DNA from: a virus | Virus record (IMG/VR): IMGVR_UViG_3300040751_002535 | DNA: 64,000 nucleotides | Reading direction: 5' to 3' (one strand) | Part shown: positions 1-21,592 of the stretch, piece after piece | Layout of the letters: each line of letters starts with the position of its first letter | How positions within the stretch are numbered: position 1 is the stretch's first letter | Translations under genes and position numbers: made by a program | The notes under the pieces: model-generated | What the model was told of the DNA's origin: nothing | Databases searched by the model: none | Seen by the model: the letters and a program-made list of their open reading frames with translations, nothing else

Positions 1-153
1 AGACACACTTGGTGTGGTAAAACATACAATCCTGAGAAAGTAAGCTACTGGGATCTTCCTTGGGAGATCGAAGCACACGGACGAGAAACTGGATTGTTTG
101 TACGCTGGGCAGAAAAAGAACGTGTTGCTCACTTAAAATGGACACAACTATAG
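1..153 (+). CDS. partial CDS (3' end), putative phage zincin-like metallopeptidase C-terminus
   Basis: Frame 1 reads ...KVSYWDLPWEIEAHGRE...KWTQL* ; YxxxPWEIEA is typical of the tail of phage HExxH-type proteins; 5' part lies outside the window. Confidence 0.45.
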   Translation, partial: RHTWCGKTYNPEKVSYWDLPWEIEAHGRETGLFVRWAEKERVAHLKWTQL

Positions 154-154
154 G

Positions 155-182
155 TTGACGTTAAATCAAAATACACTATATT
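155..182 (+). promoter_or_regulatory. sigma70-like promoter for the R-M pair
   Basis: TTGACG (155-160), 16 nt, TATATT (177-182). Confidence 0.6.
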
Positions 183-211
183 AATACTAAGGCAAAACAG
201 AAAGGTACCAC

Positions 212-718
212 ATGTCACAACGTGTAAACAACTTTAAAGGCGGCATCCAATCAGGTACAACTGCATTAGATGCAGATAGTTCCAAACTTGATAAACAACT
301 TAAAGAATCTAGAGATAATATTCGAGTACCTGATCTTAAGATGATCAAACAGTTTTCTTATGAAGATAAAATAAAATATGTTGGCGACAACTGTTTTGGA
401 TTTGCACCAGATGGCGGCGCATGGTTCAAAGGCGACAAACTAGTAGCAGTATTTGAAGCCAAGAAACAAGGACTTGGCGGCAATGCATACGAACGTTGGT
501 GGGACAATGCTTGTACAGCAAAACATATTAATCCAGATGTAGTATATGTAACATTTTGCAGCGGCCCGGGCTCTGCACAAGGACAATGTTTAGATAATCT
601 CCGGCGCAAAGCAAACATTATGTTAGGCGAAAACTTCAAGTTTTATATGTCACCCGAAGGCTTTACATTTGATCAAGTTAGTGCTATAATGCAAGAAACA
701 TTGGAAGGAACGTTATGA
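212..718 (+). CDS. EcoRI/MunI-like type II restriction endonuclease (PD-(D/E)XK), compact
   Basis: PDGG...FEAKKQG...GNAYER matches EcoRI PDGG...AEAKHQG...GNAIER; ATGA overlap with the MTase gene. Confidence 0.75.
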   Translation: MSQRVNNFKGGIQSGTTALDADSSKLDKQLKESRDNIRVPDLKMIKQFSYEDKIKYVGDNCFGFAPDGGAWFKGDKLVAVFEAKKQGLGGNAYERWWDNACTAKHINPDVVYVTFCSGPGSAQGQCLDNLRRKANIMLGENFKFYMSPEGFTFDQVSAIMQETLEGTL

Positions 719-1653
719 AACCATTATACATGTGGGCAGGCGGAAAAAACAAAATGATACCCAAATATTTGGATAACCCAGGTATTCCAACTAGTGGCTA
801 CGACACATTTGTTGAGCCATTTTTTGGTGGCGGAGCAATGACTATTTGGGTATATGAAAACTGTCCGGATGTAAAAAGGTTTGTTATCAATGATGTTAAA
901 GAAGAACTAGTTGGTATTTACAACGCTATTAAAAATGATGTTGATAACTTTATTAAACGTATGGATGCACTCGAAGCACAATATATTCCTTTAGATAAAG
1001 CCAAACGCAAAGAATGGTTTTACAATCTTCGTACACCATATGCAACCAATGTACACAACTGGACTACTACAGAAGAAAGTGCTACACTTTACTTCCTAAT
1101 GAAAACAGCATTTAATGGTATTTGGCAAACTACCAAACGTGCAAATGGTAGATTTGATACACCATTTGGATTAGGTAATCAAAAGACAACAGTGTATGAC
1201 AAAGAAAATGTAATAGAATGGCATACATTTTTACAGAAAGTAGATGTTTATTGTGGAGACTGGAAAGTGGCAAGCGATGCAGTAGCAGGCGAACGTGCGT
1301 TTTTCTTTTATGATCCGCCATATAGAGATAGCTTTACAAGTTATGGTGAAGGATTTACAGATGCAGATCATCAAACTTTAATCGAGTATTGTGTACAAAA
1401 AGATCTACAAGGCGATATTGTATTTTATTGTAATAGAGATGATGCACAAGACGGATTCTTTGATACACACAAAGCACATTTGAACGATAGTTACTTTGAT
1501 ATAAAATATACAGCTGGACGTAGAGCTACTGAAAAAGACGAAGATGGCAACGACACTCGTACAGCAAAAGCAGCCAAAGAGATACTATTGCATTCAACAA
1601 TAGTAAAATCTGCTGATGTATTTGCCAATGGATTATGTGAAGTAGTTGGTTGA
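715..1653 (+). CDS. N6-adenine DNA methyltransferase, Dam/D12 (alpha) family
   Basis: WAGGK, EPFFGGG (motif I), IND, FNG...F.TPFG hairpin, DPPY (motif IV). Confidence 0.92.
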   Translation: MKPLYMWAGGKNKMIPKYLDNPGIPTSGYDTFVEPFFGGGAMTIWVYENCPDVKRFVINDVKEELVGIYNAIKNDVDNFIKRMDALEAQYIPLDKAKRKEWFYNLRTPYATNVHNWTTTEESATLYFLMKTAFNGIWQTTKRANGRFDTPFGLGNQKTTVYDKENVIEWHTFLQKVDVYCGDWKVASDAVAGERAFFFYDPPYRDSFTSYGEGFTDADHQTLIEYCVQKDLQGDIVFYCNRDDAQDGFFDTHKAHLNDSYFDIKYTAGRRATEKDEDGNDTRTAKAAKEILLHSTIVKSADVFANGLCEVVG

Positions 1654-1678
1654 CAAGTGTGTGCCTGTATGCTATAAA
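1650..1678 (+). promoter_or_regulatory. sigma70-like early promoter
   Basis: TTGACA, 17 nt, TATAAA with TGn extension. Confidence 0.7.
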
Positions 1679-1710
1679 AGTGTATAGGCACAAACACACA
1701 GAGGCACACC

Positions 1711-2457
1711 ATGTTCGCAGAAGTTAAAAACGGATACGTACACAAGGACGCAGTTCCAATGAAAACTGTTAAACTTACAGAAGCACTTGCTGTCGCATAT
1801 GCAGCTTACCGTATCAACAACAACACTTATACCAAAGACACTCGTCGCTTTAGCTGTGACGAAAACAAGACACAGTTTGACAACAAGAGTCTTGTGCGTT
1901 ACTATTGGGAAAAGAAGCTGGATACCGCAGACGCAAAGTATCTTCCTACAGACTTTGAAATGTTCGAACCTACTGAAGAAGACTATGCAAGTGTGCAAGA
2001 AGCACTCAAGTGGATGAAACGTTATGTGATGCTTGGACTAGGCGAGCTAGACAGCTTCAAAGCAGACATGGTAAAAGAACTGTCGCAAGATGAAGTGCCA
2101 TTCAAAGGCATGGGTCGTATTGCTTTTGCTCCAGAGTTTATTGCTCGCGATCAACACGAAAGCAATCTTAAGAAAGAGATCCGTGTAGAGTATCGCGACA
2201 GCAAACATCTAGGTGCAGAGAAAGATAGTGTAGAAGCAGTGATTGCTATCCTTGACAAGCGTTACAGCGCACAGTGGGAGAGCTACAACTACACTGCGGT
2301 TACTACAGAAGGTAACCTAGTGAGCTTTATGAACAAGTTTGCATACGATGTAGGTGCTATGCTACGTTGTAAGGCTAAGGTAAAAGCACAGACTAAGAAC
2401 AAGTTGTTCGAAGCAAACGAAACTCGTCTAAACTATGTAAGACTCTATAAGGTATAA
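1711..2457 (+). CDS. hypothetical phage protein, possible C-terminal OB-fold
   Basis: 248-aa ORF with GAGG RBS; beta-rich C-terminus ending ETRLNYV. Confidence 0.6.
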   Translation: MFAEVKNGYVHKDAVPMKTVKLTEALAVAYAAYRINNNTYTKDTRRFSCDENKTQFDNKSLVRYYWEKKLDTADAKYLPTDFEMFEPTEEDYASVQEALKWMKRYVMLGLGELDSFKADMVKELSQDEVPFKGMGRIAFAPEFIARDQHESNLKKEIRVEYRDSKHLGAEKDSVEAVIAILDKRYSAQWESYNYTAVTTEGNLVSFMNKFAYDVGAMLRCKAKVKAQTKNKLFEANETRLNYVRLYKV

Positions 2458-2478
2458 AAATATGAAGGACGATTACTA

Positions 2479-2691
2479 ATGGATTTTTTTACAGCGGCAC
2501 ACGGTATTCTATTACTAACAGCAGTGGTTTTTACTGTATTCGGTGCCTACGTTGGTCGTAGATCTCAAACAGAAGAGATTGTAGAAGCTACACTTGATAG
2601 CTTGATCGAAGATGGTTATATTAAAACAGAAGGCCGCGGTGCCAACATGGAAATCATTAGATGGCAAGAATGGTGCAACAAAAATGATTAA
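2479..2691 (+). CDS. small membrane protein
   Basis: N-terminal hydrophobic helix; AAGGA RBS. Confidence 0.6.
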   Translation: MDFFTAAHGILLLTAVVFTVFGAYVGRRSQTEEIVEATLDSLIEDGYIKTEGRGANMEIIRWQEWCNKND

Positions 2692-3280
2692 ACTGCAAGG
2701 TAAACTTCCTCGTAGGGTGTATCTAGCCTGTAGTGGTGGTGTTGACAGCATGGCTGCACTAGACTTTCTAAGACGCAATCACGATGTACATGTACTACAT
2801 TTTGATCACGGAACCGAACATGGTCGACAAGCAAAGGAGTTTGTAGAACAATACTGTATGCGTAGAGGTATTCCTATTACCACAGGCGAAATACATGGTA
2901 CAGTACCTCCGGGTCCTAGCAGAGAAGAATGGTGGAGAGAACAGCGTTATGCTTTCCTCGACAAGTTTTCTGGAAACACCATTATTACTTGTCATCACTT
3001 GGATGATTGTGTGGAAACTTGGGTGTGGAGCAGTATGCATGGCACAGGCAAATGGATCCCGTATCGTCGAAACTATGTAGTACGACCGTTTCGTCTCACT
3101 CGCAAAAGAGATTTAGAAATGTGGTGTCGTTTAAACAATGTACCGTGGATTGAGGATGACAGTAATGAAGATATCCATTATACTCGTAACTATATTCGAC
3201 ATGAAATGATGCCAAACGTATTAAGAGTTAATCCAGGTATTCATAAAACTATTGCAAAAAAGGTTAAGGAAGATGAGTAA
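2684..3280 (+). CDS. tilS: tRNA(Ile)-lysidine synthetase-like PP-loop ATPase (catalytic domain only)
   Basis: ACSGGVDSM PP-loop, HFDHG, RY, HHLDD..ET, D.SN...Y.RN.IRH; start refined to ATG 2684. Confidence 0.85.
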   Translation: MIKLQGKLPRRVYLACSGGVDSMAALDFLRRNHDVHVLHFDHGTEHGRQAKEFVEQYCMRRGIPITTGEIHGTVPPGPSREEWWREQRYAFLDKFSGNTIITCHHLDDCVETWVWSSMHGTGKWIPYRRNYVVRPFRLTRKRDLEMWCRLNNVPWIEDDSNEDIHYTRNYIRHEMMPNVLRVNPGIHKTIAKKVKEDE

Positions 3281-3283
3281 AAG

Positions 3284-3490
3284 TTGTGGAGAAGAAGCGT
3301 GTACGCAGTAATGGTATGTCTTGACGGCAAAGATGATTGGATTTATGTTACGAAACAAACAGAGCATTGCTGGGACTTACAGCCCGAACTGTTTGAAGAT
3401 GCACATGAAGCAATGGAGTTTGCACAAAGATTTCAACTCCCAGATAAACCTGAAAACGTAATGGTGGTAGATTATTATGAAGATCCATAA
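3284..3490 (+). CDS. hypothetical protein
   Basis: ORF within the gene string; true start may be GTG 3299. Confidence 0.5.
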   Translation: MWRRSVYAVMVCLDGKDDWIYVTKQTEHCWDLQPELFEDAHEAMEFAQRFQLPDKPENVMVVDYYEDP

Positions 3491-3506
3491 GGTTATCGCA
3501 AACGAG

Positions 3507-3512
3507 TAAATA
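3507..3512 (+). promoter_or_regulatory. T4-like late promoter core (TAAATA)
   Basis: Intergenic TAAATA upstream of GGGAG RBS and ATG 3539. Confidence 0.5.
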
Positions 3513-3538
3513 CAAGTCATAACATAGGGAGTACTAAT

Positions 3539-3748
3539 ATGGCACGACATGACTATATGGGCTTTTCAGAAACGCTCGAAGAAGACGACTATGGACTTAT
3601 TATAGACAAGAATGGAAATATAAAAGGCATCTGGGTGCCAAAACATTTGGAAGATGTAGAACAGCTTCCTTCAAGTATTGTACATGCTTGTAAACTTTAT
3701 TTTGATGTTGACCCAAATGACGAAAGCAACTATCAAACATTACATTAG
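3539..3748 (+). CDS. hypothetical acidic protein
   Basis: GGGAG RBS, 69 aa. Confidence 0.6.
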   Translation: MARHDYMGFSETLEEDDYGLIIDKNGNIKGIWVPKHLEDVEQLPSSIVHACKLYFDVDPNDESNYQTLH

Positions 3749-3756
3749 AGGTTTTA

Positions 3757-3996
3757 ATGACACCACAAGAAATAGCTGAATACAAACAGCGTTGGATGAG
3801 CACAGGAAATACCAATCCTGTGCGACTTCACAGTGACTTGGATACACAAGGTAAAACTTGGTGTAGAAGGAACTTGGAGAGACATCAATGGAGCATGACA
3901 ACATGGACAGATGTTTACGAACATACTTTCTTTTTTGAAAGCAAAGAACATGCATTACAGTTCGAACAACAATGGCCAAGATTTATCAATCAATAG
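3757..3996 (+). CDS. hypothetical protein
   Basis: GAGG RBS, 79 aa. Confidence 0.65.
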   Translation: MTPQEIAEYKQRWMSTGNTNPVRLHSDLDTQGKTWCRRNLERHQWSMTTWTDVYEHTFFFESKEHALQFEQQWPRFINQ

Positions 3997-4025
3997 TTGA
4001 CAAATATAAAAATAAAAGTTATAAT
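3997..4025 (+). promoter_or_regulatory. consensus sigma70 promoter
   Basis: Perfect TTGACA, 17 nt, TATAAT. Confidence 0.85.
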
Positions 4026-4054
4026 GATTAGTAATAACAAGGAGTGCATTCCAT

Positions 4055-4342
4055 ATGGAAGAAAACTTAACTAAGACAGAAGCAGTCGGTAGATTAATCA
4101 GCTTGGCCAAAGAAGTTGAGATTAGAGATCCTATTGACTGGAAGAGAATGAAGGTAACCGAAGAGCAAGTATTTGAAGTAATGGCAGCAAATGTCATTGA
4201 TCAACTTTTTAGTATACCAGAAGACCATCGAACAACAGTAGCAATGGCTACTATGACAAAGTTACTTGTAGAAAACTTTGTATTATCAACTAAACTAGCA
4301 GAAGAAAGAGAAAAAAATGCCATTAGTACCAATCGTAGTTGA
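4055..4342 (+). CDS. hypothetical protein
   Basis: AAGGAG RBS, 95 aa, predicted helical. Confidence 0.65.
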
Positions 4343-4934
4343 ATCAGAAGCAAAAGGCGAACGTTCATACGACATTTACAGCCGTTTGATGAAAGACCGT
4401 ATTATTATGTTAAACGGTGTAGTAGAAGACAACATGGCTAACTTGATTGTAGCACAGATGTTGTATCTTGAAAGCGTTAATCCTGACAAAGACATTAACT
4501 TGTATATCAACTCGCCGGGCGGTGCCGTAACAGCAGGACTTGCTATTTACGACACTATGCAGTTTATCAAATGTGATGTGCGTACTATTGTAATGGGTCA
4601 GGCATGTAGTATGGGTAGTTTCCTTGCACAAGCAGGTACAGCAGGAAAACGTACTGTACTGCCAGAGTCACGCACAATGATCCATAGAGTGTCAAGTGGC
4701 ACACGAGGAACCAGCGGAAGTGTACACGTACAAGAACTACAGTTTGAAGATGCAAAACGAGCATACGAAGAGTCGCAAAAGATCAACAAGCGCCTTACAG
4801 AGCTTTATGTTAAGCATAACACCGCCGGTAAGCAGTACGACGAACTATTTGAAACTATGAAGTTTGATACATTCCTTACAGCACAAGAAGCTGTTGAACA
4901 CGGACTTGCTGATAAGGTAGTTGAGCATAGATGA
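4317..4934 (+). CDS. clpP: ATP-dependent Clp protease proteolytic subunit
   Basis: [25 protein letters not shown] (catalytic Ser), MIH (His), DTFLTA (Asp). Confidence 0.95.
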
Positions 4935-5554
4935 AGTTTAGCTGTCCAATAGATTTTCATTTACCAACACAGAAGTTGCATGATATCTATTGGAATGAGT
5001 TTGGATACAAGCTCGATGACAGAACACTTTACAAAGACGACAAAAGAATAATGCCAGTGGTTACAGGATTTTTAATCACTGGCAAAGACATCAAATGGCC
5101 AGTGCAATCATTGTTGGATGCTCTTGATATTGAGTTACAAACTGCTAGACTATTTGTAACCAATCCACACTGTAAGTTACAGATACACAAAGATTGTTTA
5201 GCTCAATCAAAAGAACTTCGTTCGTGGGCTATTAATATTCCTATTGCAAACTGCGACTTGGGTATAAATGAATGGTTTGAAGATCACAACAACGACTTTG
5301 GTACAGAGCAGTTTGCACCAGGCGGCAGTTCTATAATGCCAGAATACTTTGACAACAACTACATTGTAAGTGAGTCAATGGTGTTAAATAGCATACAACT
5401 GATTAAAACAGATGTATTTCACAGAAGCAACAACACAGGCAATGATAACCGTAGAGTTGTTTTAAGTTTAAGAGGAAAGCCCGATGTAACTTGGGCAGAT
5501 ATATTGGAGAAAGTAAATGTCTACAACAGAAGACGTGCAGAAGACAATAGCTGA
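4931..5554 (+). CDS. 2OG-Fe(II) oxygenase/cupin-like protein
   Basis: IHKD...AINIP...FH...R.VLSLR double-stranded beta-helix pattern. Confidence 0.55.
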
Positions 5555-5867
5555 TTTAAAAGGTGTGCCCACACGTCAAGAACTACTTGACCTATTAGGT
5601 GACGAAATAGTAAATGTAACATTTGACAAACTCAGCGGCGATGAGCGTACTATGAAGTGTACACTTATACCCAGCATGTTACCAGCAGCACAGCGTGAAG
5701 ACAAACTAAGTCAAACTAAGATACGCAACTTGGAAGACAAGGTGTTTGTGGTATGGGCTATAGATATTGAGCCTAATGCTTGGCGTAGCTTCCGTTATGA
5801 CAGGGTTAAAAAGGTTGAAGTTGATTTTCTGTTTGGCAACGGAACCGAGGATGGAGCAAACTACTAA
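5517..5867 (+). CDS. WYL_2/Sm-like SH3 beta-barrel protein
   Basis: VTFDK.SGDERTMKCTL...WRSFR motif. Confidence 0.7.
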   Translation: MSTTEDVQKTIADLKGVPTRQELLDLLGDEIVNVTFDKLSGDERTMKCTLIPSMLPAAQREDKLSQTKIRNLEDKVFVVWAIDIEPNAWRSFRYDRVKKVEVDFLFGNGTEDGANY

Positions 5868-6403
5868 TGTTAAATCCTGTAAAACTTGACTACGACTTTG
5901 ACGTATTTTTAAATGCCGACTACAGTGTACACGAAGGCAGTTGTATTGCACACCAAGTACATGAGCTACAGGATGTTCACGAAGAACACGGTGGCTTTCC
6001 AGACAGTTACGAACGCAGCAACACATTGATTAGACAGTTGTGGTTTGACGAAACGCAAGTGGACTACAAAGAGTTTGAACGCCAGTTGGGCATTGAAGTT
6101 GTAACAGTTAGCACAGTACTACAACCACCCGGTAATGTTATTCCTATTCACAGAGATACATTCTTCCAAATCAACAAACGTTATCCGGATGATACACGTT
6201 TAAAGGTTCGTGCTAATATGTACTTGCAAGATTGGAAAGTTGGACATCTTATACAATATCAAGAGCATGATAAAACTTGGCACAACAGCACACATTGGAG
6301 TGCAGGAGATGGATATATTTGGGATCACAACCATTTGCATCTAAGTGCCAATGCTGGAATGGCTGACAAATACACTCTACAAATCTCAGGTTTTTTAAAA
6401 TAA
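5867..6403 (+). CDS. 2OG-Fe(II) oxygenase/cupin-like protein
   Basis: PGNVIPIHRD...W.AGD...HLSANAG...YTLQISG. Confidence 0.6.
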   Translation: MLNPVKLDYDFDVFLNADYSVHEGSCIAHQVHELQDVHEEHGGFPDSYERSNTLIRQLWFDETQVDYKEFERQLGIEVVTVSTVLQPPGNVIPIHRDTFFQINKRYPDDTRLKVRANMYLQDWKVGHLIQYQEHDKTWHNSTHWSAGDGYIWDHNHLHLSANAGMADKYTLQISGFLK

Positions 6404-6407
6404 TAGG

Positions 6408-6443
6408 TTGACATCTTATTAAGAGTAATGTATATTATAAATA
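6408..6443 (+). promoter_or_regulatory. overlapping sigma70 and T4-like late promoter
   Basis: TTGACA, 17 nt, TATATT (6431-6436), plus TATAAATA (6436-6443). Confidence 0.7.
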
Positions 6444-6468
6444 TAGGCACACAGAGAAAGGCACTATC

Positions 6469-6969
6469 ATGAAAAACTTATTACTTGCTACAACTATTGC
6501 TATTGTAACTTCATCTGCTGCGGTAGCTGATGTTGTAAGAGCACGTATTACACATGTTGAACCACGCTACGAAACAGTTTACAATAATGTACCCACAACA
6601 CAATGTCAAGACGTTGAAGTTCCGGTTTATGGACGCACAGGCGGCGGTGCTACAGGTGGTGATGTACTAGGTGGTATGATCATTGGTGGATTGCTTGGCA
6701 AAGGTGCTACTGGTAAGGATGATGGCGCAGCTATTGGCGCTATTCTCGGAGGTATGGTAGCAGCTGACAACAACAACGGTCGAAGAGTTATCACAGGATA
6801 TCAGATTCAACGTCAGTGCAACGAAGTGTATGAAACACGTCAAGTACGCCAGATAAAAAACTATCTTATTAGGTTTGAATGGAACGGCCATTACGGACAA
6901 GCATACACATACAACAACTATCGTGTAGGTGATCGTATTGATGCAACTGTTAGTGTAACAGCAAACTAA
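6469..6969 (+). CDS. exported glycine-zipper 2TM protein (YcfJ-like)
   Basis: Signal peptide; GxxxG zipper LGGMIIGGLLG...GAAIGAILGG flanked by a Cys pair. Confidence 0.75.
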   Translation: MKNLLLATTIAIVTSSAAVADVVRARITHVEPRYETVYNNVPTTQCQDVEVPVYGRTGGGATGGDVLGGMIIGGLLGKGATGKDDGAAIGAILGGMVAADNNNGRRVITGYQIQRQCNEVYETRQVRQIKNYLIRFEWNGHYGQAYTYNNYRVGDRIDATVSVTAN

Positions 6970-7181
6970 TGAGTAGTTTTAAAATAGATGAAATGCTGGA
7001 GTTGTTGTACAAGATTGACAGTCGCTTGGATATCATTGAAAAATATCTTCACTTTGAAGATGAAGAAGTTGCAAGTATTCTAGATGAACTTATACAAGAA
7101 GAGCAAGACAACATAAACTCTAAACCAAAACTTGTTATTGTTGAGAATGATAAGATTGTAGAGTTTCCAACGAACGACTAA
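6969..7181 (+). CDS. hypothetical acidic protein
   Basis: TAATG translational coupling, 70 aa. Confidence 0.55.
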   Translation: MSSFKIDEMLELLYKIDSRLDIIEKYLHFEDEEVASILDELIQEEQDNINSKPKLVIVENDKIVEFPTND

Positions 7182-7932
7182 GACAGTTACGTTTGTTGTT
7201 GTCTAGCCCAAAAAGAACACAGTCGCTCTGAGTTAGATTGTGTTCTTCACAAAGTTTTATTTGATTGATCCTATATTTTTGAAATATCCAATCACTTGTA
7301 AACTTGTTCATTAGGTCAAGATGTAAAAGCATACTTGAATGATTTAGATAAAAATGTTTGTTTGTGACACTTGCAGGTGATGAATATGGCTCAGTTGTAT
7401 ACACAACTCCACATCTTATATGTCCTGTGTTGAATGCTTTGCTAAAACTAAATGCTACATGAGTAATGCAAGAATGTGTTAGATCAAGTTTACCCAAACT
7501 CACACCTGCTAAACAAGCATCAACAAATACATCTATACCCCATTTTATACAATGCTGGATAATATCATTCCAATCTTTGTGCGGATTACCTGTGGCAGCA
7601 AATGGATAGCTTATGATAAGTCTACTACCAAACGGAATATCTTTGTAGTTGGATATTGGAATACCAATATCCTTATGATAACTGTATTCTCCGTTTAGCA
7701 CATAACACCGTTCTCTATACACTTCGTTGAATGCTTCAGTTACACCAGCAGTTACATAACCGTATTTGAATGAGTCTAGACCAACTAATCTAAATGTGGT
7801 ATTTTTAATCCATTCTCGATGCTGTTTTACAAAAACTTGCGGCGCATATATTTTATTTAGATGTATCTCTCTAGCATTAATAAACTCTTTGATTGAGTTA
7901 TCATGTATAGGTATTGCTTTACTACTAAACAT
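7135..7932 (-). CDS. PLP-dependent transferase-like protein (fold type I)
   Basis: GVTEAF, ISYPF...GN, VDAC, FSFSKAF...RCG (Schiff-base Lys motif). Confidence 0.65.
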   Translation of the reverse strand: MFSSKAIPIHDNSIKEFINAREIHLNKIYAPQVFVKQHREWIKNTTFRLVGLDSFKYGYVTAGVTEAFNEVYRERCYVLNGEYSYHKDIGIPISNYKDIPFGSRLIISYPFAATGNPHKDWNDIIQHCIKWGIDVFVDACLAGVSLGKLDLTHSCITHVAFSFSKAFNTGHIRCGVVYTTEPYSSPASVTNKHFYLNHSSMLLHLDLMNKFTSDWIFQKYRINQIKLCEEHNLTQSDCVLFGLDNNKRNCLSRSLETLQSYHSQQ

Positions 7933-8632
7933 CTACCACCTGCGCTTTGAAAAAGTTAAAGAACCCTGTGAGTGTTAATCTTACATTCTCACCAGCATCC
8001 TTGTCTACCCTAGTTATACCATGTACTACGTTCTTGTTTATCAACACAAGTCTATTGGGTTTGGGTGCTACAAAATAGCCCATGCCGTGTTCAATCAACC
8101 CTTTTTGTTTTTCTGCTTGCTCAAACATTTCCAATGTGCCTGTATTACGATACGTATCTTGTTGTTTAGTACCTGGTAACTTGCGCATGATTTGTTTGTA
8201 TTCTACACTGTCTTTGGGTAACACCAACAACATACTGTCCCAGTTGATTTGCCAATGTTTGTGCAAGTAATAACTGTAAGTTACCCCGCCCATATCTGTA
8301 TGCCACGGATTTTTACTGCCTACAGGGTAACCATGACATCGCATAGCAATGTCTGTGTAGCCTGCTGTATAATCTTGAGCTTCTTCGCTGTCTGCAAATG
8401 TCTTTATAGCATCTGCCCATATGTCGTAGTTGTCGTTAAATGGCGCATCTCGGAGAAAGCGTTTGCTGGCTTTGTAGTTTGCACCATCGGTAATATGCCA
8501 ATATTTGTCGTCAGTCTGACTCTGTGTCCATTCGTCACACTGCACTTGATTGAACAATCTATCCCAACTCTCTTGTGGCAAGAAATCATCTACCACAAGC
8601 ACTTCGGGTGTTTTCATTACAACTTTATACAT
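7925..8632 (-). CDS. 2OG-Fe(II) oxygenase (prolyl-hydroxylase-like)
   Basis: VVDDFLP, WHTD, PKPNRLV, VHGITRV, R.TLTGF. Confidence 0.8.
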   Translation of the reverse strand: MYKVVMKTPEVLVVDDFLPQESWDRLFNQVQCDEWTQSQTDDKYWHITDGANYKASKRFLRDAPFNDNYDIWADAIKTFADSEEAQDYTAGYTDIAMRCHGYPVGSKNPWHTDMGGVTYSYYLHKHWQINWDSMLLVLPKDSVEYKQIMRKLPGTKQQDTYRNTGTLEMFEQAEKQKGLIEHGMGYFVAPKPNRLVLINKNVVHGITRVDKDAGENVRLTLTGFFNFFKAQVVDV

Positions 8633-13643: not shown

Positions 13644-14834
13644 ATGTACAAATGTTATTTCCTATTGGACGAGATTCTAGAATCTCCGTATGAGCCAATC
13701 TCTATAAAGTTGCCTGGTTCAAGGCTTCACTCAATGCCGCTGGACTATCTGCTAGGACATTTTGACGATTTTAACTACAGAAACTTTTTTCATATAAGTC
13801 GAATAGAACTATTAGATACACAGACACCAAAGTTTATTGTTAATGTAATACATATGCCCAACTGGGTAGATACAAATCTATCAAAAGATGGCATTGATTT
13901 ATTAAAAAATGATCCTAATGTTTATTTGTGCTTGATAACTACATTAGAATGTGTATTAGATACAAAGGCACTAGCAAATGAGTTAAACAGTAAAGAAATA
14001 CCATTACACAAAGTTGTTGTTATGACTAGTAATATGCAGGCTCACGGAAATAAACTGGATGGTGTAAACTATATTTGTGTTAACTTTTGGGAAAGTATTA
14101 CTAGGCTTCATCATCAGACGTTGCCCGATATTAGTGTAACTACACCTAAGCAACTTTCAATAAATACAGCAGAAAAAAAGTTTTTGTGTTTGAATAGGAA
14201 TATAAAGCCTCATCGTATATGGCTAATGTACAGCCTATTGCGTAGTGATATAATCAAAGAAGGACATGTAAGTTTTAACCTTCCTAGTGTCGATCGTAGA
14301 GCATTTTATGTGTGTGCTAGATCGCATCATACACTAAAACGTATTCCTGAATCTCTACACGATGATTATAAGATGGCATTGGTTAGAGAAATGTATAATC
14401 GTAAACTAGATCCATTGCACAATCACCATGTAATAAACTATAACTCTAGTATCAAGTCTTACTACAATGACAGTTTGTTGAGTGTAATAACCGAAAGCGA
14501 TACTAGTCTTAACTTTATTACAGAAAAAACTTACAAGGCTATAATGAATCTTCATCCGTTTTTTATTGTTGGCAATCCTGATCAACATGCATTACTTCGA
14601 GCTAGAGGCTATCATACTTTTGAAGATTTGTTTGGAGTTGATCAGATTACCAACTATGCAGAAGCATCGAAAATGTGGAAACACATCGGTAGTAAAAATA
14701 TAGATGTATTAAAACAAAACATCAAGAAAAAATATTTAGATAAATTAATACATAACCAGCAGTTATTTCTTTCAAGGAAGATTAGTTGGAACGATATAAC
14801 AAATAATCTTATAACAGCAGTAGGTGATACTTGA
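13644..14834 (+). CDS. putative glycosyltransferase-like protein (GT-B-type C-terminus)
   Basis: FLCLNR..PHR and FITEKTYKAI...PFFIVG...GY.TF, reminiscent of the GT10 fucosyltransferase nucleotide-sugar motif. Confidence 0.45.
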   Translation: MYKCYFLLDEILESPYEPISIKLPGSRLHSMPLDYLLGHFDDFNYRNFFHISRIELLDTQTPKFIVNVIHMPNWVDTNLSKDGIDLLKNDPNVYLCLITTLECVLDTKALANELNSKEIPLHKVVVMTSNMQAHGNKLDGVNYICVNFWESITRLHHQTLPDISVTTPKQLSINTAEKKFLCLNRNIKPHRIWLMYSLLRSDIIKEGHVSFNLPSVDRRAFYVCARSHHTLKRIPESLHDDYKMALVREMYNRKLDPLHNHHVINYNSSIKSYYNDSLLSVITESDTSLNFITEKTYKAIMNLHPFFIVGNPDQHALLRARGYHTFEDLFGVDQITNYAEASKMWKHIGSKNIDVLKQNIKKKYLDKLIHNQQLFLSRKISWNDITNNLITAVGDT

Positions 14835-16042
14835 CCCAAGATTTTAAAAAACATTTTTGCATGGCGCCATGGACACACATGAGCGTATGGCAAAACGGTG
14901 ATGCATATCCTTGTTGTATATACCACTGGGATATGCCTATTGGTAACATCAACGAAGCTGGGTTTAAAGGTGCATGGAACAGTGAAAAGATGCGTGACTT
15001 GCGTATGCGTATGTTAAACAACGAACCAAGCGAAGGATGCAAAAAGTGTATCAACTATGACGACCAAGGTATTATCAGTTATAGACACAAGTTCAATACC
15101 GAATACGATCATCATTACAACTTAGTAGAAACAACCAGCGACGACGGCAGTGTAGAACAAATGAACCTTGCTTACTTTGATGTAAGGTTTAGTAATCTAT
15201 GCAACATGAAATGCCGTAGTTGTGGTCCACATTTCAGCAGCAAGTGGGCAGAAGATATTTCAGGTAAGCCCGAAGTTGTAGAAATCAATCATCCAGAAAT
15301 GTGGGACGAGATTGAAGAAATGTTGCCCACTATAGAAGAAGTTTATTTTACTGGCGGCGAAAGCCTGTTTATGGAGCAGCATTATAGGCTGCTGGATATG
15401 CTTATAGAGCGTGGACTCAAACCGAGATTAACATACAACAGCAATGCTAGTAGATTGAGCCTCAAAGGCAAACACATAAAAGATTACTGGCAGCACTTTG
15501 ATAAAATATTCTTTTGTGTGAGTTGTGATCAAATAGGCATCAAAGCTGAATACACACGGGCTGGACAAAAGTGGAGTACAGTATTTGATAACTTGTGCTG
15601 GATACGTGATAACTTTGAACACAGCTATGACAAGGGTGTAGTTATACAACCTAATCCAACTATCAGTGTATTGAACATATTAGATTTGCGTAAGATTATC
15701 AACTTCTTGTTTGAACACAATATACCCACTGACTACGATATCAATCTCAGCAACTTGCTAGTTGGACCTGACTGGCTTAGTATTACAATACTACCTGATC
15801 ACATAAAACAACTGGCTAAAGAAAACATAATATTATTAAAAGAAGATATTGATAAGTTGAATATGTATCCACAACGTAAAGAGTTTTTGCACACAGGACT
15901 AGACAATATCATAAACTTCATGTATAGTAAAGATGACAGTCATCTGATTCCTGCATTTAGGAATGAAATGCAGAAAATAGATTTAAAACGTGGTGAAAAC
16001 TTTCTCAACGTATTTCCAGAACTAAAGGACTTGTATGTCTAA
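14831..16042 (+). CDS. radical SAM protein with N-terminal Twitch/SPASM domain
   Basis: FCMAPW...PCC...CKKC, then CNMKCRSC and GGE. Confidence 0.9.
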   Translation: MTQDFKKHFCMAPWTHMSVWQNGDAYPCCIYHWDMPIGNINEAGFKGAWNSEKMRDLRMRMLNNEPSEGCKKCINYDDQGIISYRHKFNTEYDHHYNLVETTSDDGSVEQMNLAYFDVRFSNLCNMKCRSCGPHFSSKWAEDISGKPEVVEINHPEMWDEIEEMLPTIEEVYFTGGESLFMEQHYRLLDMLIERGLKPRLTYNSNASRLSLKGKHIKDYWQHFDKIFFCVSCDQIGIKAEYTRAGQKWSTVFDNLCWIRDNFEHSYDKGVVIQPNPTISVLNILDLRKIINFLFEHNIPTDYDINLSNLLVGPDWLSITILPDHIKQLAKENIILLKEDIDKLNMYPQRKEFLHTGLDNIINFMYSKDDSHLIPAFRNEMQKIDLKRGENFLNVFPELKDLYV

Positions 16043-17243
16043 ACAACTTAAAAACAGCAAACACTTTTGTATGATGCCGTGGACGCATATGCATTTGTGG
16101 CCTGCTGGCACAACATATCCTTGCTGTATGAGTGATCCAGAGTTTCCTATTGGAAATACACAAGAGCAGAGTTTGCAAGAAATATGGAACGGCAAAGAAC
16201 TACGCAATATACGTATGAACATGCTACAGGACAAGCCAAGCAAAGAATGTAGACGTTGCTACGAACTAGAAGAAAACGGCATGAGTACATTGCGTACCGG
16301 TAGTATTGGAAACTATGCACACCATTGGGACAAAGTTGAAGCAACCAGCGATGATGGTAGTGCAGGCGATGTTAACATGGCATATATGGACATACGCTTT
16401 AGTAATCTTTGCAATCTTAAATGTCGCAGTTGTGGTCCACAGTTTAGCAGCAGTTGGTTTGAAGATCACAAAGTAACACACGGTGATCCAGGACATCCTA
16501 AGATACTCCAAGTACGTGATGAAATGAAAAGTTTTATGGACGAGCTTGATCCGTTGTTGGAAAGTGTAGAACGTGTGTACTGGGCCGGCGGAGAACCGCT
16601 TATTACCAAAGAGCATTACAACATACTTGACAAATGGATTGCTATGGGCAAACGTGATGTTAGTATGGATTATACTACAAACTTTACACAAATGTATTAC
16701 AAAAAGAAAACAGCATTTGATTATTGGAATAAGTTTGAAAATGTTAGAGTAGCTGGTAGTTTAGATGCCAATCATGCTAGAGGTGAATACTTGCGTAAAA
16801 ATATGGTGTGGAGTGAAGTTGTACAAAACAGACGCACAATGATAGAACAATGCCCACATGTGTATTTTGAACTAACACCTACTGTGAGTGTGTACAACGT
16901 GCTTAACCTGCCTGACTTTCACAAGGAATGGATTGAAGAAGGATTGTTAGAGCCTTCTAATATACGTATCAACATATTGTTGGATCCTACATATATGCGT
17001 TTGAGTATATTGCCTCCGTGGATTAAATCTAAAGTTGCTGAAAGATATTCAGAACATATTGCATACCTAAAGCAGTTTGATAATATTGCAGGTGTCATAA
17101 ACGATTATGAAAGTATTTTAAACTTTATGGAAAAAGACCGCACAAACGAAATAAAAATGTTTAAGTTTAAAACACAACGTATAGACACTCTAAGACAGGA
17201 AAACTTGTTAGATGTGTTTCCCGAACTGGAGGGTATTTGGTAA
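16035..17243 (+). CDS. radical SAM protein with N-terminal Twitch/SPASM domain
   Basis: FCMMPW...PCC...CRRC, CNLKCRSC, GGEP. Confidence 0.9.
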   Translation: MSKQLKNSKHFCMMPWTHMHLWPAGTTYPCCMSDPEFPIGNTQEQSLQEIWNGKELRNIRMNMLQDKPSKECRRCYELEENGMSTLRTGSIGNYAHHWDKVEATSDDGSAGDVNMAYMDIRFSNLCNLKCRSCGPQFSSSWFEDHKVTHGDPGHPKILQVRDEMKSFMDELDPLLESVERVYWAGGEPLITKEHYNILDKWIAMGKRDVSMDYTTNFTQMYYKKKTAFDYWNKFENVRVAGSLDANHARGEYLRKNMVWSEVVQNRRTMIEQCPHVYFELTPTVSVYNVLNLPDFHKEWIEEGLLEPSNIRINILLDPTYMRLSILPPWIKSKVAERYSEHIAYLKQFDNIAGVINDYESILNFMEKDRTNEIKMFKFKTQRIDTLRQENLLDVFPELEGIW

Positions 17244-19411
17244 TGGGATTTTTTGAAAAAAGAGATATTGATCCAAACAGAGAAATGCCTATAAAGCCAA
17301 CGGGTACATTAGCCGAAGATAAACACACTGCTACACTTGCTGCTATTGCAAAGTACAGCAAACCTGTACAAAAAGGTTTAGAAAATCTTGAAATAGAATA
17401 CAAAGTTAATAGACAGACTAGACTGTGTATGTGTTTGTTGCCAGAATGGGATCCTAGTTTTCCACCTTACAATACAGCAAAACTTGCTAGTGCTGTAAAA
17501 CGTGCAGGTTATGCTTGTAAAAGTTTTGATATAAATGTAGAAGCATACAATAGATTTCACAATGAAAAATGGCCTATTGATTTTGATCCTTGGGATCCAC
17601 TACGTGACTGGCACTGGCTTGAAGAACATTATTACAAAGATATTCACCCACATCTAAAACCTATACTAGATGAAAAGATCGATGAGATAGTTGAGTTTGC
17701 ACCAGATGTGGTTGGGTTTACATTGTACTATTGCAACGAAGCGCCTACAAAGTATGTAGCAGAACAACTGAAAAAGCGTATGCCAAATGTTCTAATCATG
17801 GTGGGCGGCCCTAGTACTCATGCTAGTTATTACAAGGGCGATGATTTATTTGATTATGTAGTAAACGGCGAAGGTGAACAACCATTATTGCTTGCACTAG
17901 AAAGCATAGAAAAAAAGCAAGGTGTTCAATACAACGAAAAAGAAAAAAGTATGATTATCCGGCAGCCTGAAAATCAGCGCTATAATCTAAGTACGTTGCC
18001 ACTGCCTGACTACAGCGATTTTGACTTTAGCAAGTATAAGTTTCCAAATGGTGCGCTATGTGAAATATCAAGAGGCTGTATTGCCAAGTGTACGTTCTGC
18101 GAAGAAACACACTTTTGGAAATATAGGCAGCGTAATGCACTTAGCACACTCGATGAGATTGAACATATGTACTATGAACATGGTACTAATGTATTTTGGT
18201 TTATTGATAGTTTGGTAAATGGTAATCTAAATGAACTGCGTGGATTTGTAAAAGGAGTTGCCGAAAAAGGACTAGAGATACATTGGACTGGTTATTGTAG
18301 ATGTGATGGTAGAATGGATGCTGAATACTACAAAGATCTAAAAGCAGGCGGATGCGAAGTTCTTAACTATGGTATTGAAAGCGGCAGTCAAGTTGTACTA
18401 GATGCTATGGATAAAAAAGTTACTGTACCAGAAATGGAAGCCAACTTTAGAGATGGCTATGCAGCTGGCATTGATGCAATGACCAACTGGATTGTAGGCT
18501 ATCCTAACGAAGGACATAAAGAACTTGAAGACACTCTTACTTTTATGTATAGAGTACGCAATCAAGGACTTATTGCAATCAGTCAAGGTACAGGATTTAG
18601 TGTAGGTGTAGACACCATTGTAGGACAAAACTTTGACAAGTTTAATCTGTCACCGTTTTACTATTACGATCATTGGATTACAAAAGATTATAAAATGAGT
18701 ATTGTACACAAACTCATACGTATGAAAACTTTTAGTATTTTTACAGACTTACTAAAAACAGAAAAAGTTTGCAGCAAGCCAACTCGTCCTAACTTGGCCA
18801 AGTTTCATTATGATATCAAGTTTGATAATCCTGATAACGAGTTTGATATTGAATACGATTATGATGACTTTGATTATAATATTATCAAGCCAGGCATTAG
18901 TAACTTTGCTGATAGTTTGGTAAATGAGATTTGGCCATTTTTAAGAATAGTATGGCGCACAAAAGGTGCATATAAACTACATTTAAAGTTCCGCAAAGAA
19001 TGGGAATATGAAGAATGGGGAGAGCGTAATGCTGCTCCATTGGATGCTGACTATATATTTGAAATAACAGATGATGGCAAATGGACTGCTGACTTTAAAT
19101 GGAAATATCAACAAGACGAATACAGTGATTGGGAAGACAAGTACTGGATTGAAAATGGTGCAATGCAAATGAGTCCAGATCCTTCGAGCCCTGTTTGGAG
19201 TATTATGGATTTCACCCGAGATAATAGCAATGCAGTTATTAGAGCACGTAAACTTGCATGGAAAGGTGATGCAGAGAAAAAGTCTAAAGATCCTTATAAT
19301 GCTTATGATTTTAAAAAGTTTAAGCAAGACGAAAAAGACTTTATAAGTGTACGTAATATAGACTTTAGTTTTGAATATGAATGGCAGGGCAAAGGAGACT
19401 GGAGTGAGTAA
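17243..19411 (+). CDS. B12-binding radical SAM protein (class B methyltransferase-like)
   Basis: VGGP...GEGE cobalamin-binding domain; SRGCIAKCTFC; GIESGS; long acidic/aromatic C-terminal extension. Confidence 0.9.
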   Translation: MGFFEKRDIDPNREMPIKPTGTLAEDKHTATLAAIAKYSKPVQKGLENLEIEYKVNRQTRLCMCLLPEWDPSFPPYNTAKLASAVKRAGYACKSFDINVEAYNRFHNEKWPIDFDPWDPLRDWHWLEEHYYKDIHPHLKPILDEKIDEIVEFAPDVVGFTLYYCNEAPTKYVAEQLKKRMPNVLIMVGGPSTHASYYKGDDLFDYVVNGEGEQPLLLALESIEKKQGVQYNEKEKSMIIRQPENQRYNLSTLPLPDYSDFDFSKYKFPNGALCEISRGCIAKCTFCEETHFWKYRQRNALSTLDEIEHMYYEHGTNVFWFIDSLVNGNLNELRGFVKGVAEKGLEIHWTGYCRCDGRMDAEYYKDLKAGGCEVLNYGIESGSQVVLDAMDKKVTVPEMEANFRDGYAAGIDAMTNWIVGYPNEGHKELEDTLTFMYRVRNQGLIAISQGTGFSVGVDTIVGQNFDKFNLSPFYYYDHWITKDYKMSIVHKLIRMKTFSIFTDLLKTEKVCSKPTRPNLAKFHYDIKFDNPDNEFDIEYDYDDFDYNIIKPGISNFADSLVNEIWPFLRIVWRTKGAYKLHLKFRKEWEYEEWGERNAAPLDADYIFEITDDGKWTADFKWKYQQDEYSDWEDKYWIENGAMQMSPDPSSPVWSIMDFTRDNSNAVIRARKLAWKGDAEKKSKDPYNAYDFKKFKQDEKDFISVRNIDFSFEYEWQGKGDWSE

Positions 19412-20612
19412 TACATATTGCGTATACCCGTTTATAAACGTACACACTAACACCGATGGTAGATGTAAACTATGCTGCCATGTGTACAGTGAAGACTATA
19501 TTCAAGTAGATGGCAAAGATGCTGTACTAGGTAAAACTGACTGGTGGAACATTTGGAACGGGCAATACATGCTGGATGTTCGTGCAAAGATGCTGGCCGG
19601 TGGCAAAGTTAAAGAATGCAATCGCTGCTACGAACACGAAGAAAAAGGTTTAGAAAGCAGCAGACAATGGGCCAACAAAACATATCGTGCATCTGTAACA
19701 CACGGCAACCCTACACACTTAGAACTACGATTGGGCAACCATTGTAACCTAAAATGCAATAGTTGTTGGAGTGTGAGCAGTGATCAGATTTACAAAGAAC
19801 GTAAGAAGATACTTGCTAAAGAGTCTGTACCTAAGTGGTTAGATGACCAATGGCAACACGAGATTAAAAGTGTAGAGGAACACGATTGGGCATGGTACGA
19901 GACTCAGGAGTTTCGTGACTTTGTAGATCAAGTTGCACCTACATTAGAACGACTGTACATGACAGGTGGTGAGCCTACACTGATACAAGCAAATCAGTAT
20001 GTATTGGACAAACTAGTAGAAGCTGGTAATACAAAATGTCATGTAGCATGGACAACCAATATGACTACATGGCCAGAAGGGTTTTATGACAAACTAGATT
20101 TTTTTGACACTAGTGAAATACAGATGAGCATCGACGGTTATGGTGATCATAACATGTACATACGCTATCCAACTGATTGGAACAAGGTAGAAGAAAACTT
20201 TGACAAAGCAATGCGGTTGCCTGAAAAAGTACAACTAAAGATTTACTTTGTGTATCAAGCATGGAATGTGTTTGATGTTGACAAACTAATACGTTGGCTA
20301 GAACAAAAGCAAACAAGGCGTGTGGACTTTGTTCCTATTTTCTTAGAACATCCTGATCAACTGCACAGTTGTGTATGGCCTAGAGAACTACAGCATAATA
20401 TCATTGGAAAACTAATGATGCTGGATACAAAGCTACACCAAGATGCTGTTCAAAGAATCATTAACTACACACAGAATACTAATAAATATTCAGCAGAGAA
20501 CCTCATGAGAATGAAACAGTTCATTAGTATCAATGATAGATATCGCAAGTATAAGTTTGCAGATATTTTTCCATTACTAAATGACATATTGGAAACAGAA
20601 TGCAAGAAATAA
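19404..20612 (+). CDS. radical SAM protein with N-terminal Twitch/SPASM domain
   Basis: YCVYPF...LCC...CNRC, CNLKCNSC, GGEP; GTG start after AGGAG. Confidence 0.9.
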   Translation: MSNTYCVYPFINVHTNTDGRCKLCCHVYSEDYIQVDGKDAVLGKTDWWNIWNGQYMLDVRAKMLAGGKVKECNRCYEHEEKGLESSRQWANKTYRASVTHGNPTHLELRLGNHCNLKCNSCWSVSSDQIYKERKKILAKESVPKWLDDQWQHEIKSVEEHDWAWYETQEFRDFVDQVAPTLERLYMTGGEPTLIQANQYVLDKLVEAGNTKCHVAWTTNMTTWPEGFYDKLDFFDTSEIQMSIDGYGDHNMYIRYPTDWNKVEENFDKAMRLPEKVQLKIYFVYQAWNVFDVDKLIRWLEQKQTRRVDFVPIFLEHPDQLHSCVWPRELQHNIIGKLMMLDTKLHQDAVQRIINYTQNTNKYSAENLMRMKQFISINDRYRKYKFADIFPLLNDILETECKK

Positions 20613-21592
20613 AAGCTATTTTACCAGCTAAAGACAAATGGGTAAGCCTAGTATGGCAAGTCAACGATTGGTGCAACTTTCGTTGTACATATTGCAGCGA
20701 ATGGAACTGGGCAGGACGTAATAAAAACGATACAGATATTCCGTTGATTGTTGATACACTTGAGCGTATTATGTTACATTATAAAGCCAAAGGTTACAAG
20801 TATTTTAAACTGTATCTCAGCGGAGGCGAACCTACATTTTGGAAGGCACTTATTCCTGTTGTAGAAAAGTTTAGAGAACATGCAGAATGGCCTGGCAGTT
20901 GTGTAGGTATCAACACCAACTTTAGTAAGCCACTAAGCTGGTGGAAGGATCATCATCACTTGTTTGAAGATGTTGTTGCTAGTTATCATGCAGAATGGAG
21001 CAAAGACGACAAGTACATGGATGTTTACAAGTTCTTACAAGATAAGAAAAACTATTTGTGTAGTCGTATTATGATGCATCACGATCATTTTGAACAGTGT
21101 ATGGCATTTGGCGACAGAATAAAAAATGAGTGTGACAACTATATGATTGAGTATGCACCAGTCTATGACGAGTTACGTCCTAGCACAGATCCGTATCATT
21201 ATGACGAACCGTGGCAGATGGAGTTTTTTCAAACTAATAGTACAGTACAACAGCAGAGTATTCCTATAAAAAAAGATCCTAGTTATGCTTGGGCAAAAGT
21301 ACAATACGAAGATGATACTATAGAACCTATTGATACAAACGGCATCATTACAAACGGTAAAAACTTCTTTAAAGGTTGGTTGTGCAATATACACGAAAGT
21401 TTGCACATTCATCCTAATGGTAAAATACAACAAGCAAGTTGTGGAGTAGGACCAGTTGTTGGAAATATTGTACAAGGCGAGTTTAATACTACAATGAGTG
21501 AAGGAGTGTGGTGTCCTAAATCACATTGTCATTGTGCAGCAGACTTTAATATTAGTAAAGCAAGGCCAGAATATGCAAAACAAATTAGATAA
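20600..21592 (+). CDS. radical SAM protein with C-terminal SPASM-like domain
   Basis: CNFRCTYC, GGEP, C-terminal C...C...CP...CHC. Confidence 0.9.
   Translation: MQEIKAILPAKDKWVSLVWQVNDWCNFRCTYCSEWNWAGRNKNDTDIPLIVDTLERIMLHYKAKGYKYFKLYLSGGEPTFWKALIPVVEKFREHAEWPGSCVGINTNFSKPLSWWKDHHHLFEDVVASYHAEWSKDDKYMDVYKFLQDKKNYLCSRIMMHHDHFEQCMAFGDRIKNECDNYMIEYAPVYDELRPSTDPYHYDEPWQMEFFQTNSTVQQQSIPIKKDPSYAWAKVQYEDDTIEPIDTNGIITNGKNFFKGWLCNIHESLHIHPNGKIQQASCGVGPVVGNIVQGEFNTTMSEGVWCPKSHCHCAADFNISKARPEYAKQIR

Follow-up and report, generated by a model that had tools for sequence, protein, structure and literature searches.

EcoRI (G^AATTC; PF02963; 1ERI, 1CKQ and 2OXV) has the catalytic residues D91, E111 and K113 (PMC4081073). 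Its inner A-T pairs are bonded by the main chain of N141 and A142 and by the side-chain of R145; E144 and R145 read adenine, the inner thymine depends critically on Q115, A142 is the wedge at the central AATT step, R200 reads the outer guanine and, beyond the site itself, two arms touch the DNA backbone (PMC4081073; PMC3806743). Here we describe two overlapping open reading frames, ORF1 and ORF2, near the start of the IMG/VR virus record IMGVR_UViG_3300040751_002535, a stretch of 64 000 nucleotides that is called the window below. ORF1 (168 amino acids, compared with 277 for EcoRI) shares fold and ancestry with EcoRI; the PDGG...EAKxQG...GNAxER residues are identical, but its predicted site is 4 bp rather than 6 bp long. 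ORF2 is a Dam-family adenine methyltransferase. We consider it probable that the two genes form a mobile Type IIP restriction-modification (R-M) system, which most likely cuts and methylates AATT. This reading rests on homology and conserved residues, on the linkage of the two genes and on the relation between carriage of the nuclease and loss of AATT from viral DNA.

'EcoRI, MunI and MluCI' have been grouped as related or mosaic enzymes (PMC4081073), and since MluCI is related to EcoRI and MunI an AATT cutter is already known in the lineage of ORF1. MunI (C^AATTG) is also a structural match to ORF1 (Z 7.2). MluCI, Tsp509I and Sse9I cut ^AATT, the site predicted for ORF1; they are likened to it here by site and by that review, not by sequence, and they are bacterial, whereas the ORF1 family is almost confined to phages. 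A literature search for Sse9I, MluCI and TspEI returned only their uses as reagents, and GNAxER was not found as a motif name.

The relatives of ORF2 are the GATC methylases E. coli Dam (EcoDam), T4 Dam and DpnM of the D12 class, with which it shares motif I, the DPPY motif and the family thresholds. Dam-like methylases are commonplace in phages. In EcoDam, R124 reads base pair 4 through a contact with its guanine; the R124A enzyme no longer requires C:G at this position, and GATT and GATG are methylated by it more rapidly than GATC. Base pair 1 is read by K9 and Y138. Y119 is the residue that intercalates at the inner A-T pairs, between them, and N120, L122 and P134 handle these pairs (PMC4417163). 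As for gene order, the R gene of Eco29kI precedes and partly overlaps its M gene (PMC3113576). The cassette shares this R-first, overlapping layout with Eco29kI, but the enzyme families and target sites differ. Chloroviruses carry Type II R-M systems with both enzymes borne by the virus. Their enzyme families and target sites are again different, and the carrier studied here is a tailed phage that has purged the site from its genome.

ORF1 and ORF2 compared with EcoRI and Dam

The AlphaFold (AF2) model of ORF1 has a predicted local distance difference test (pLDDT) score of 88 and a predicted template modelling (pTM) score of 0.81. Searched with this model, Foldseek gives EcoRI for each of its five best PDB matches (prob 1.0) and MunI as the ninth, and VIA-align places EcoRI first of 48,161 chains (Z 11.5, root-mean-square deviation 2.8 Å over 140 of 168 residues, 21% identity). 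The language-model neighbours of ORF1 include a MunI-family cluster. Helices starting at E94/R95 and near residue 126 resemble the recognition helices of the four-helix bundle in EcoRI. For a profile comparison, 56 members of the ORF1 family were aligned with hhalign to three natural EcoRI-family proteins from genomes of Bacteroidota, whose Pfam E values are 1e-121 to 1e-150; the match spans 161 columns, with a probability of 94% and E 1.4e-7. The alignment sets D67, E82 and K84 of ORF1 opposite D91, E111 and K113 of EcoRI, and Q86, N91, A92, E94 and R95 opposite Q115, N141, A142, E144 and R145. D67, G68, E82, K84, Q86, G90, N91, A92, R95 and W96 are invariant in the 56 sequences, and the E94 column holds 54 Glu and two Asp. 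An earlier note on this DNA had taken the GNAxER segment of EcoRI as the reader of the inner AATT, and the published roles of E144/R145, N141 and A142 bear this out (PMC4081073; PMC3806743).

Two segments of EcoRI are missing from ORF1. Residues 118-138, which comprise the inner arm, M137 and A138, are deleted between Q86 and GNAYER, and a second deletion removes about residues 176-192 (outer arm); the column of R200 is occupied by N129. In EcoRI, M137 and A138 belong to the extended chain and, like R200, are readers of the outer G:C pairs. By fold, profile alignment and motifs we regard ORF1 as a true but minimal EcoRI homologue, which has kept precisely the inner-AATT apparatus, has lost the arms together with M137 and A138, and lacks the features that define a GAATTC isoschizomer. 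Because the arms and M137/A138 are absent, the bare tetranucleotide AATT is the most likely site predicted for ORF1.

The family comprises about 120 clusters at 90% identity, or 212 representatives at 50%. ORF1 has a single PHROG match, phrog_2400 (function unknown); it has no match to Pfam PF02963 at the gathering score, NCBIfam and PADLOC scans gave nothing for it, and PDB chain sequences yielded no match to ORF1, to its core segment or to the profile of its family. Sub-threshold matches to PF02963 occur in five of the 56 relatives (E at least 0.017; the best, P0253, reaches 20.1 bits against a cut-off of 22), and the Pfam EcoRI family is the only one that recurs, below threshold, among the members. 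It was not found in a Pfam EcoRI scan of 14 control genomes. The homologue in the Synechococcus phage S-CREM2 is annotated in GenBank as 'restriction endonuclease EcoRI'. About 185,000 cellular species genomes yielded one match to the ORF1 family, on a 3-kb contig of a metagenome-assembled genome (MAG), with strict peptide patterns that distant relatives could escape. Homologues of ∼280 amino acids in L049, L052-L055, L058 and L062 have a C-terminal extension of ∼110 residues; several of these contigs are weakly depleted in AATT, which may mean a longer recognition site.

ORF2 scores above the cut-offs of PF02086 (113.9 bits, cut-off 22, E 1.3e-32) and TIGR00571 (145.1 bits, cut-off 114.85) but reaches only 54.5 bits against 441 for NF008152, the equivalog of GATC-specific Dam; PADLOC labels it a Type II MTase (methyltransferase). 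Residues Y119, N120, L122 and P134 of EcoDam are kept as F, N, I and P. The outer readers are not: phmmer sets M6 opposite K9 and Q138 opposite R124, and where EcoDam has P134-F-G-R137-Y138 ORF2 has P-F-G-L-G, so that no R-Y follows PFG. The changes opposite K9 and R124 are typical of the subfamily: all 80 viral relatives that were retrieved share FNGI[WF]Q without variation, and almost every member has M, I or V at the position of K9. Both the assignment of K9 and R124 as the readers of the outer pairs in Dam and their replacement by Met and Gln in ORF2 had been stated in the earlier note; PMC4417163 confirms the first, adding Y138 at base pair 1, and the alignment confirms the second. ORF2 has thus kept the machinery for the central A-T pairs, whereas none of the residues that read the outer G:C pairs (K9, R124, Y138) remains. 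No avoidance of GATC is seen in the window (observed/expected ratio 0.94).

AATT loss in the window and in carriers of the cassette

Under a maximal-order Markov model, 393 AATT sites are expected in the window and 93 are observed (ratio 0.24, z -20.5), the lowest rank of all 256 tetramers. Since TTAA (1.03) and ATAT (1.04) occur at normal frequency, a general avoidance of AT-rich palindromes was ruled out; TATA and CATG stand at 0.79 and 0.73. All ten NAATTN contexts are depleted, to 0.07-0.30 under an order-1 and 0.10-0.41 under an order-2 model, and because every flanking context is affected the selected word is 4 bp long. The genome-wide depletion of AATT that had been claimed is therefore real. 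The remaining sites are patchy: positions 1-8000 have none, but each 4 kb of the regions 28-36 kb and 56-64 kb holds 11-13. CGCG comes next after AATT among the depleted tetramers of the window (15 observed, 43.5 expected).

We compared these values with about 130 related viral loci. Within the same lineage, 43 contigs share the gene downstream of the cassette (60-89% amino acid identity, same GC content), and 40 of the 43 have neither methylase nor partner in the syntenic 20 kb. The AATT ratio of these 40 cassette-less relatives is 0.74-1.05, with a median of 0.93 over the 38 that have at least 40 expected sites; the depleted loci of the same-lineage set (0.17-0.36) are carriers only. A second comparison holds the host strain constant. 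S-RIM2 and S-BM1, both carriers that infect Synechococcus WH7803, have AATT ratios of 0.35 (z -16) and 0.25 (rank 1), whereas S-PM2, which infects the same strain, stands at 0.98 over 130 kb, and no ORF1 homologue was found anywhere in its genome. AGCT, TGCA, GGCT and GGTT are strongly depleted in all three phages alike; this shared loss (L011, L095-L101, L106-L109) looks like avoidance at the level of host or lineage.

The third comparison concerns the partner of the methylase. In about 27 loci, methylases of the same FNGIWQ subfamily are overlap-coupled not to an ORF1 homologue but to a second family of ∼290 residues, which is unrelated to ORF1 and lies outside the window. Its invariant residues are E104, D121, E134-x-K136 and a GAS motif. 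The 290-residue family has no match in Pfam, PHROG, PADLOC or PDB sequences. Its model (pLDDT 88.8) gives weak best fold matches to HhaI (Z 4.8), HinP1I (Z 3.8) and MspI (Z 3.6), all of them monomeric restriction enzymes with 4-bp sites; Foldseek ranks HinP1I first, but not significantly. We regard this family as a candidate for an alternative nuclease at AATT and for a new family of restriction enzymes. The median AATT ratio is 0.36 for loci with an ORF1-type partner (n=30), 0.32 for those with the 290-residue partner (n=25) and 0.81 for contigs with the methylase alone (n=16). The one strongly depleted contig of the last class, L017, encodes a 290-residue partner 90 kb away; a complete 185-kb genome without either nuclease partner has a ratio of 0.64. 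Pooled NAATTN ratios (order-1) are 0.06-0.28 for the ORF1 type, 0.06-0.33 for the 290-residue type, 0.41-0.80 for methylase only and 0.80-1.34 for S-PM2; the carrier values (0.06-0.33) come from 660 kb of DNA. AATT depletion thus goes with the presence of a partner nuclease and neither with lineage or host nor with the methylase by itself, which is what self-avoidance of an AATT-cutting enzyme predicts.

Weighing the readings

Avoidance of host Type II sites is a well-known phage strategy, and AATT could have been lost under pressure from host restriction enzymes, with the methylase serving anti-restriction and ORF1 as a passenger. Many phages do carry the methylase without ORF1, the methylase-only contigs are mildly depleted, and m6A (N6-methyladenine) methylation of AATT has been described in marine bacteria, namely in three Acidimicrobiia MAGs (PMC8919816); we found no link in the literature between cyanophages and AATT methylation. 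We nevertheless judge a host-driven loss to be rather unlikely. The 40 close relatives, whose hosts are presumably similar, are not depleted; S-PM2 shares a host strain and other depleted words with S-RIM2 and S-BM1 but not the loss of AATT; and strong depletion goes with the partner nuclease rather than with the methylase by itself.

D12-class enzymes with sites other than GATC exist, and a second alternative is that the cassette has a different or longer target, such as RAATTY, another 6-bp site that contains AATT or an NATN palindrome (for example TATA or CATG), the depletion of AATT being coincidental. Several points count against the main reading of the cassette, and some of them would fit this alternative. 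Column 129, opposite R200 of EcoRI, is Lys or Arg in 51 of the 56 relatives, although Asn in ORF1, so that some relatives could read more than 4 bp. Carriers of ORF1 homologues at L050-L055, L060-L062, L065 and L079 and in S-CREM2 are only weakly depleted (0.6-0.9); their homologues are divergent or possibly recently acquired. S-CREM2 (L102-L105, 80 kb sampled), whose homologue is divergent, is most depleted in TATA (0.48, z -17), with AATT at 0.73, and its specificity may differ. ORF1 itself is below every curated family threshold, and the methylase-only class is mostly one clade, which leaves few independent contrasts. The contact with base pair 1 is not a conserved trait across the Dam family (PMC4417163; Horton et al. 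2015), hence the change of K9 to Met by itself says little, and specificity calls for methylases by homology often fail (PMC8919816). Finally, contigs from RNA libraries span the junction between the two genes, but these may reflect DNA carry-over.

A different or longer target is nonetheless distinctly unlikely for the cassette in the window. All ten NAATTN contexts are depleted in the carrier DNA, with ratios of 0-0.12 in the L029 group, and AATT is almost absent in every context from a carrier group whose nuclease does have Lys at position 129. In the window, TATA, CATG and GATC are all far above AATT, and the conserved GNAxER/Q set corresponds to the reader of the inner AATT in EcoRI. That ORF1 is not a restriction enzyme at all, but an inactive or non-specific nuclease fold (repair, recombination or homing-type) beside an orphan Dam-like methylase, we consider very improbable: no curated family or defence model recognizes it, PD-(D/E)XK folds are multifunctional, the mid-range VIA-align matches include Can2 and other nucleases and the slot that holds the cassette is a hypervariable one for cargo genes (see below), but its catalytic triad and sequence-reading residues are invariant, its overlap with the methylase is conserved across unrelated contexts and the depletion in carriers is specific to AATT.

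The proposal of the earlier note that both enzymes target AATT thus stands, in silico, on homology, on residue mapping and on a context-independent depletion that follows nuclease carriage. In the corresponding model, the carrier would be a lytic-type estuarine or marine phage. ORF1, with a Mg-dependent PD...ExK centre and the Gln/GNAxER reader, would act as a homodimer on bare AATT and, as in EcoRI, would cut ^AATT to leave 5' overhangs; its exact site, cleavage position and dimeric state we infer from this relationship. ORF2 would methylate AATT at its second adenine; EcoRI is blocked by methylation of this same base. The order of the genes, with R first and overlapping M, implies that both enzymes are made together. 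Self-protection of the phage would then be twofold: methylation of its DNA, and the earlier purge of roughly three quarters of its AATT sites. It had also been claimed that the R-M pair is used against host or competitor DNA while the phage methylates its own sites. The AATT part of that claim holds in silico, and for the role as a weapon we infer only that the cassette may serve to degrade unmethylated DNA of the host or of rival phages, or may be maintained selfishly.

On a broader scale, we put forward as a tentative possibility that AATT restriction is both weapon and shield among marine and estuarine phages, and that one Dam-derived AATT methylase has on separate occasions gained a partner from two nuclease families unrelated to each other. 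If so, carriers would shred unmethylated DNA of hosts and rival phages, their own AATT sites having been purged; phages with only the methylase would be immune free-riders without the need to purge; the cassette would move by way of hypervariable cargo slots, and the 290-residue E...D...ExK proteins would be a new restriction-enzyme family. If the assignments are confirmed, ORF1 would be among the smallest enzymes of the EcoRI lineage, a natural 'core only' version and compact 4-cutter that shows which parts of EcoRI suffice for AATT and how 6-bp specificity builds on a 4-bp core, and ORF2 would exemplify how a swap of the outer-base readers shifts the target of a Dam scaffold from GATC to AATT. 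The locus is also an unusually clean case in which site avoidance in a virus tracks its own nuclease rather than its host, with close relatives that lack the cassette keeping normal AATT levels.

Layout and surroundings of the cassette

The features of the locus are collected in Table 1. A 168-residue nuclease coupled through ATGA to a Dam-family m6A methylase had been described from the letters of the sequence, and both genes, their overlap and the quoted motifs PDGG, EAKKQG, GNAYER, YMWAGGK and FNGIWQ were all recovered at the mapped positions. The sigma70-like promoter placed before ORF1 did not hold up: the hexamers are present, but the first 2000 positions contain six promoter-like matches and shuffled sequence 6.2 +/- 2.3. 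Such matches being no commoner in this AT-rich stretch than in shuffles, that at 155-182 was dropped as evidence and is given no weight. Upstream of ORF1, the window opens with the 3' end of another gene.

Table 1. Positions of the cassette, its motifs and members of the second partner family (positions are those of the window unless a locus is named).
Feature	Position	Strand	Size or basis
ORF1, putative minimal EcoRI-lineage PD-(D/E)XK nuclease, predicted AATT restriction endonuclease	212..718	+	168 aa (amino acids)
ORF2, Dam-family (D12, alpha-class) N6-adenine DNA methyltransferase, predicted product A(m6A)TT	715..1653	+	312 aa
ATGA, stop of ORF1 overlapping start of ORF2	715-718		4 bp
Catalytic motif PD67...E82-A-K84 of ORF1, aligned to EcoRI D91, E111, K113	410..463	+	hhalign columns
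Codon of D67 (PDGG)	410-412
Codon of E82 (EAKKQG)	455-457
Codon of K84 (EAKKQG)	461-463
Q86 and G90-N91-A92-Y93-E94-R95 of ORF1, opposite the EcoRI inner-AATT readers Q115 and G140-N141-A142-I143-E144-R145	467..496	+	hhalign
Codons of GNAYER	479-496
M6 of ORF2 (YMWAGGK), opposite EcoDam K9, first G:C reader	730..732	+	phmmer vs 2g1p/4gol
Motif I (FFGGG) of ORF2	820-834	+
F133-N-G-I-W-Q138 of ORF2, opposite EcoDam Y119-N-G-L-C-R124	1111..1128	+	phmmer vs 2g1p/4gol
Catalytic DPPY (motif IV) of ORF2	1312-1323	+
Promoter-like hexamers TTGACG-16 nt-TATATT upstream of ORF1	155..182	+	10/12 positions match
Members of the 290-residue family	L016:9120-10004; L019:8610-9485; L023:4415-5287; L041:9132-10004
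Further members of the 290-residue family	L044:9089-9997; L076:8476-9351; L094:1489-2355

An ORF1 homologue and a D12 methylase overlap by 4 bp in S-BM1, in a Tara Oceans scaffold, in T4-like marine contigs and in others, and the neighbouring genes differ. In close relatives of the window, the flanks at 5-147 and about 1691-2461 are conserved, and the space between them is taken up by 2-4 kb of unrelated DNA, as a comparison of window 150-1700 with L113, L114, L117, L120 and L154 shows. One relative (L017/L129) has the methylase with ORF1 precisely missing. In RNA libraries from salt marsh, a contig of a 97% relative matches positions 67-1709 and then diverges. The conserved flanks, the unrelated DNA between them and the divergence past 1709 place the cassette in a hypervariable cargo slot. 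The cover of the RNA contigs has gaps at about 1567-1653 in X15 and X16.

The DNA is of viral origin. Two IMG/VR copies of the stretch (L012, L013) are 98-100% identical to it and it is seen repeatedly in many estuary metagenomes; megablast of the first 4 kb of the window against GenBank phages gave no match. The proteins of the window include ligase-like and tail-fibre-like PHROGs.

Some of the related loci show other features of word use or gene content. The Dam gene of S-CREM2 (L002:5474-6364), which lies two genes from the ORF1 homologue, has Lys at the position of EcoDam K9. GATC is absent from L076 (13.7 kb) and strongly depleted in L037 (0.17), L051 (0.29) and L083 (0.38); these four are under a separate GATC pressure. 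In the Tara Oceans scaffold (L004, L005), CATG is more depleted than AATT (z -10.6 vs -9.0). The slot is followed downstream by a conserved PP-loop (SGGVDS) ATPase-like gene at 2612-3280 of the window, which L017 has too. Further along, positions 13644-22910 hold large co-oriented ORFs, most of them without a PHROG match and some radical-SAM-like (phrog_14086), with a relative in the B12-binding radical SAM protein of Streptomyces phage SF3.

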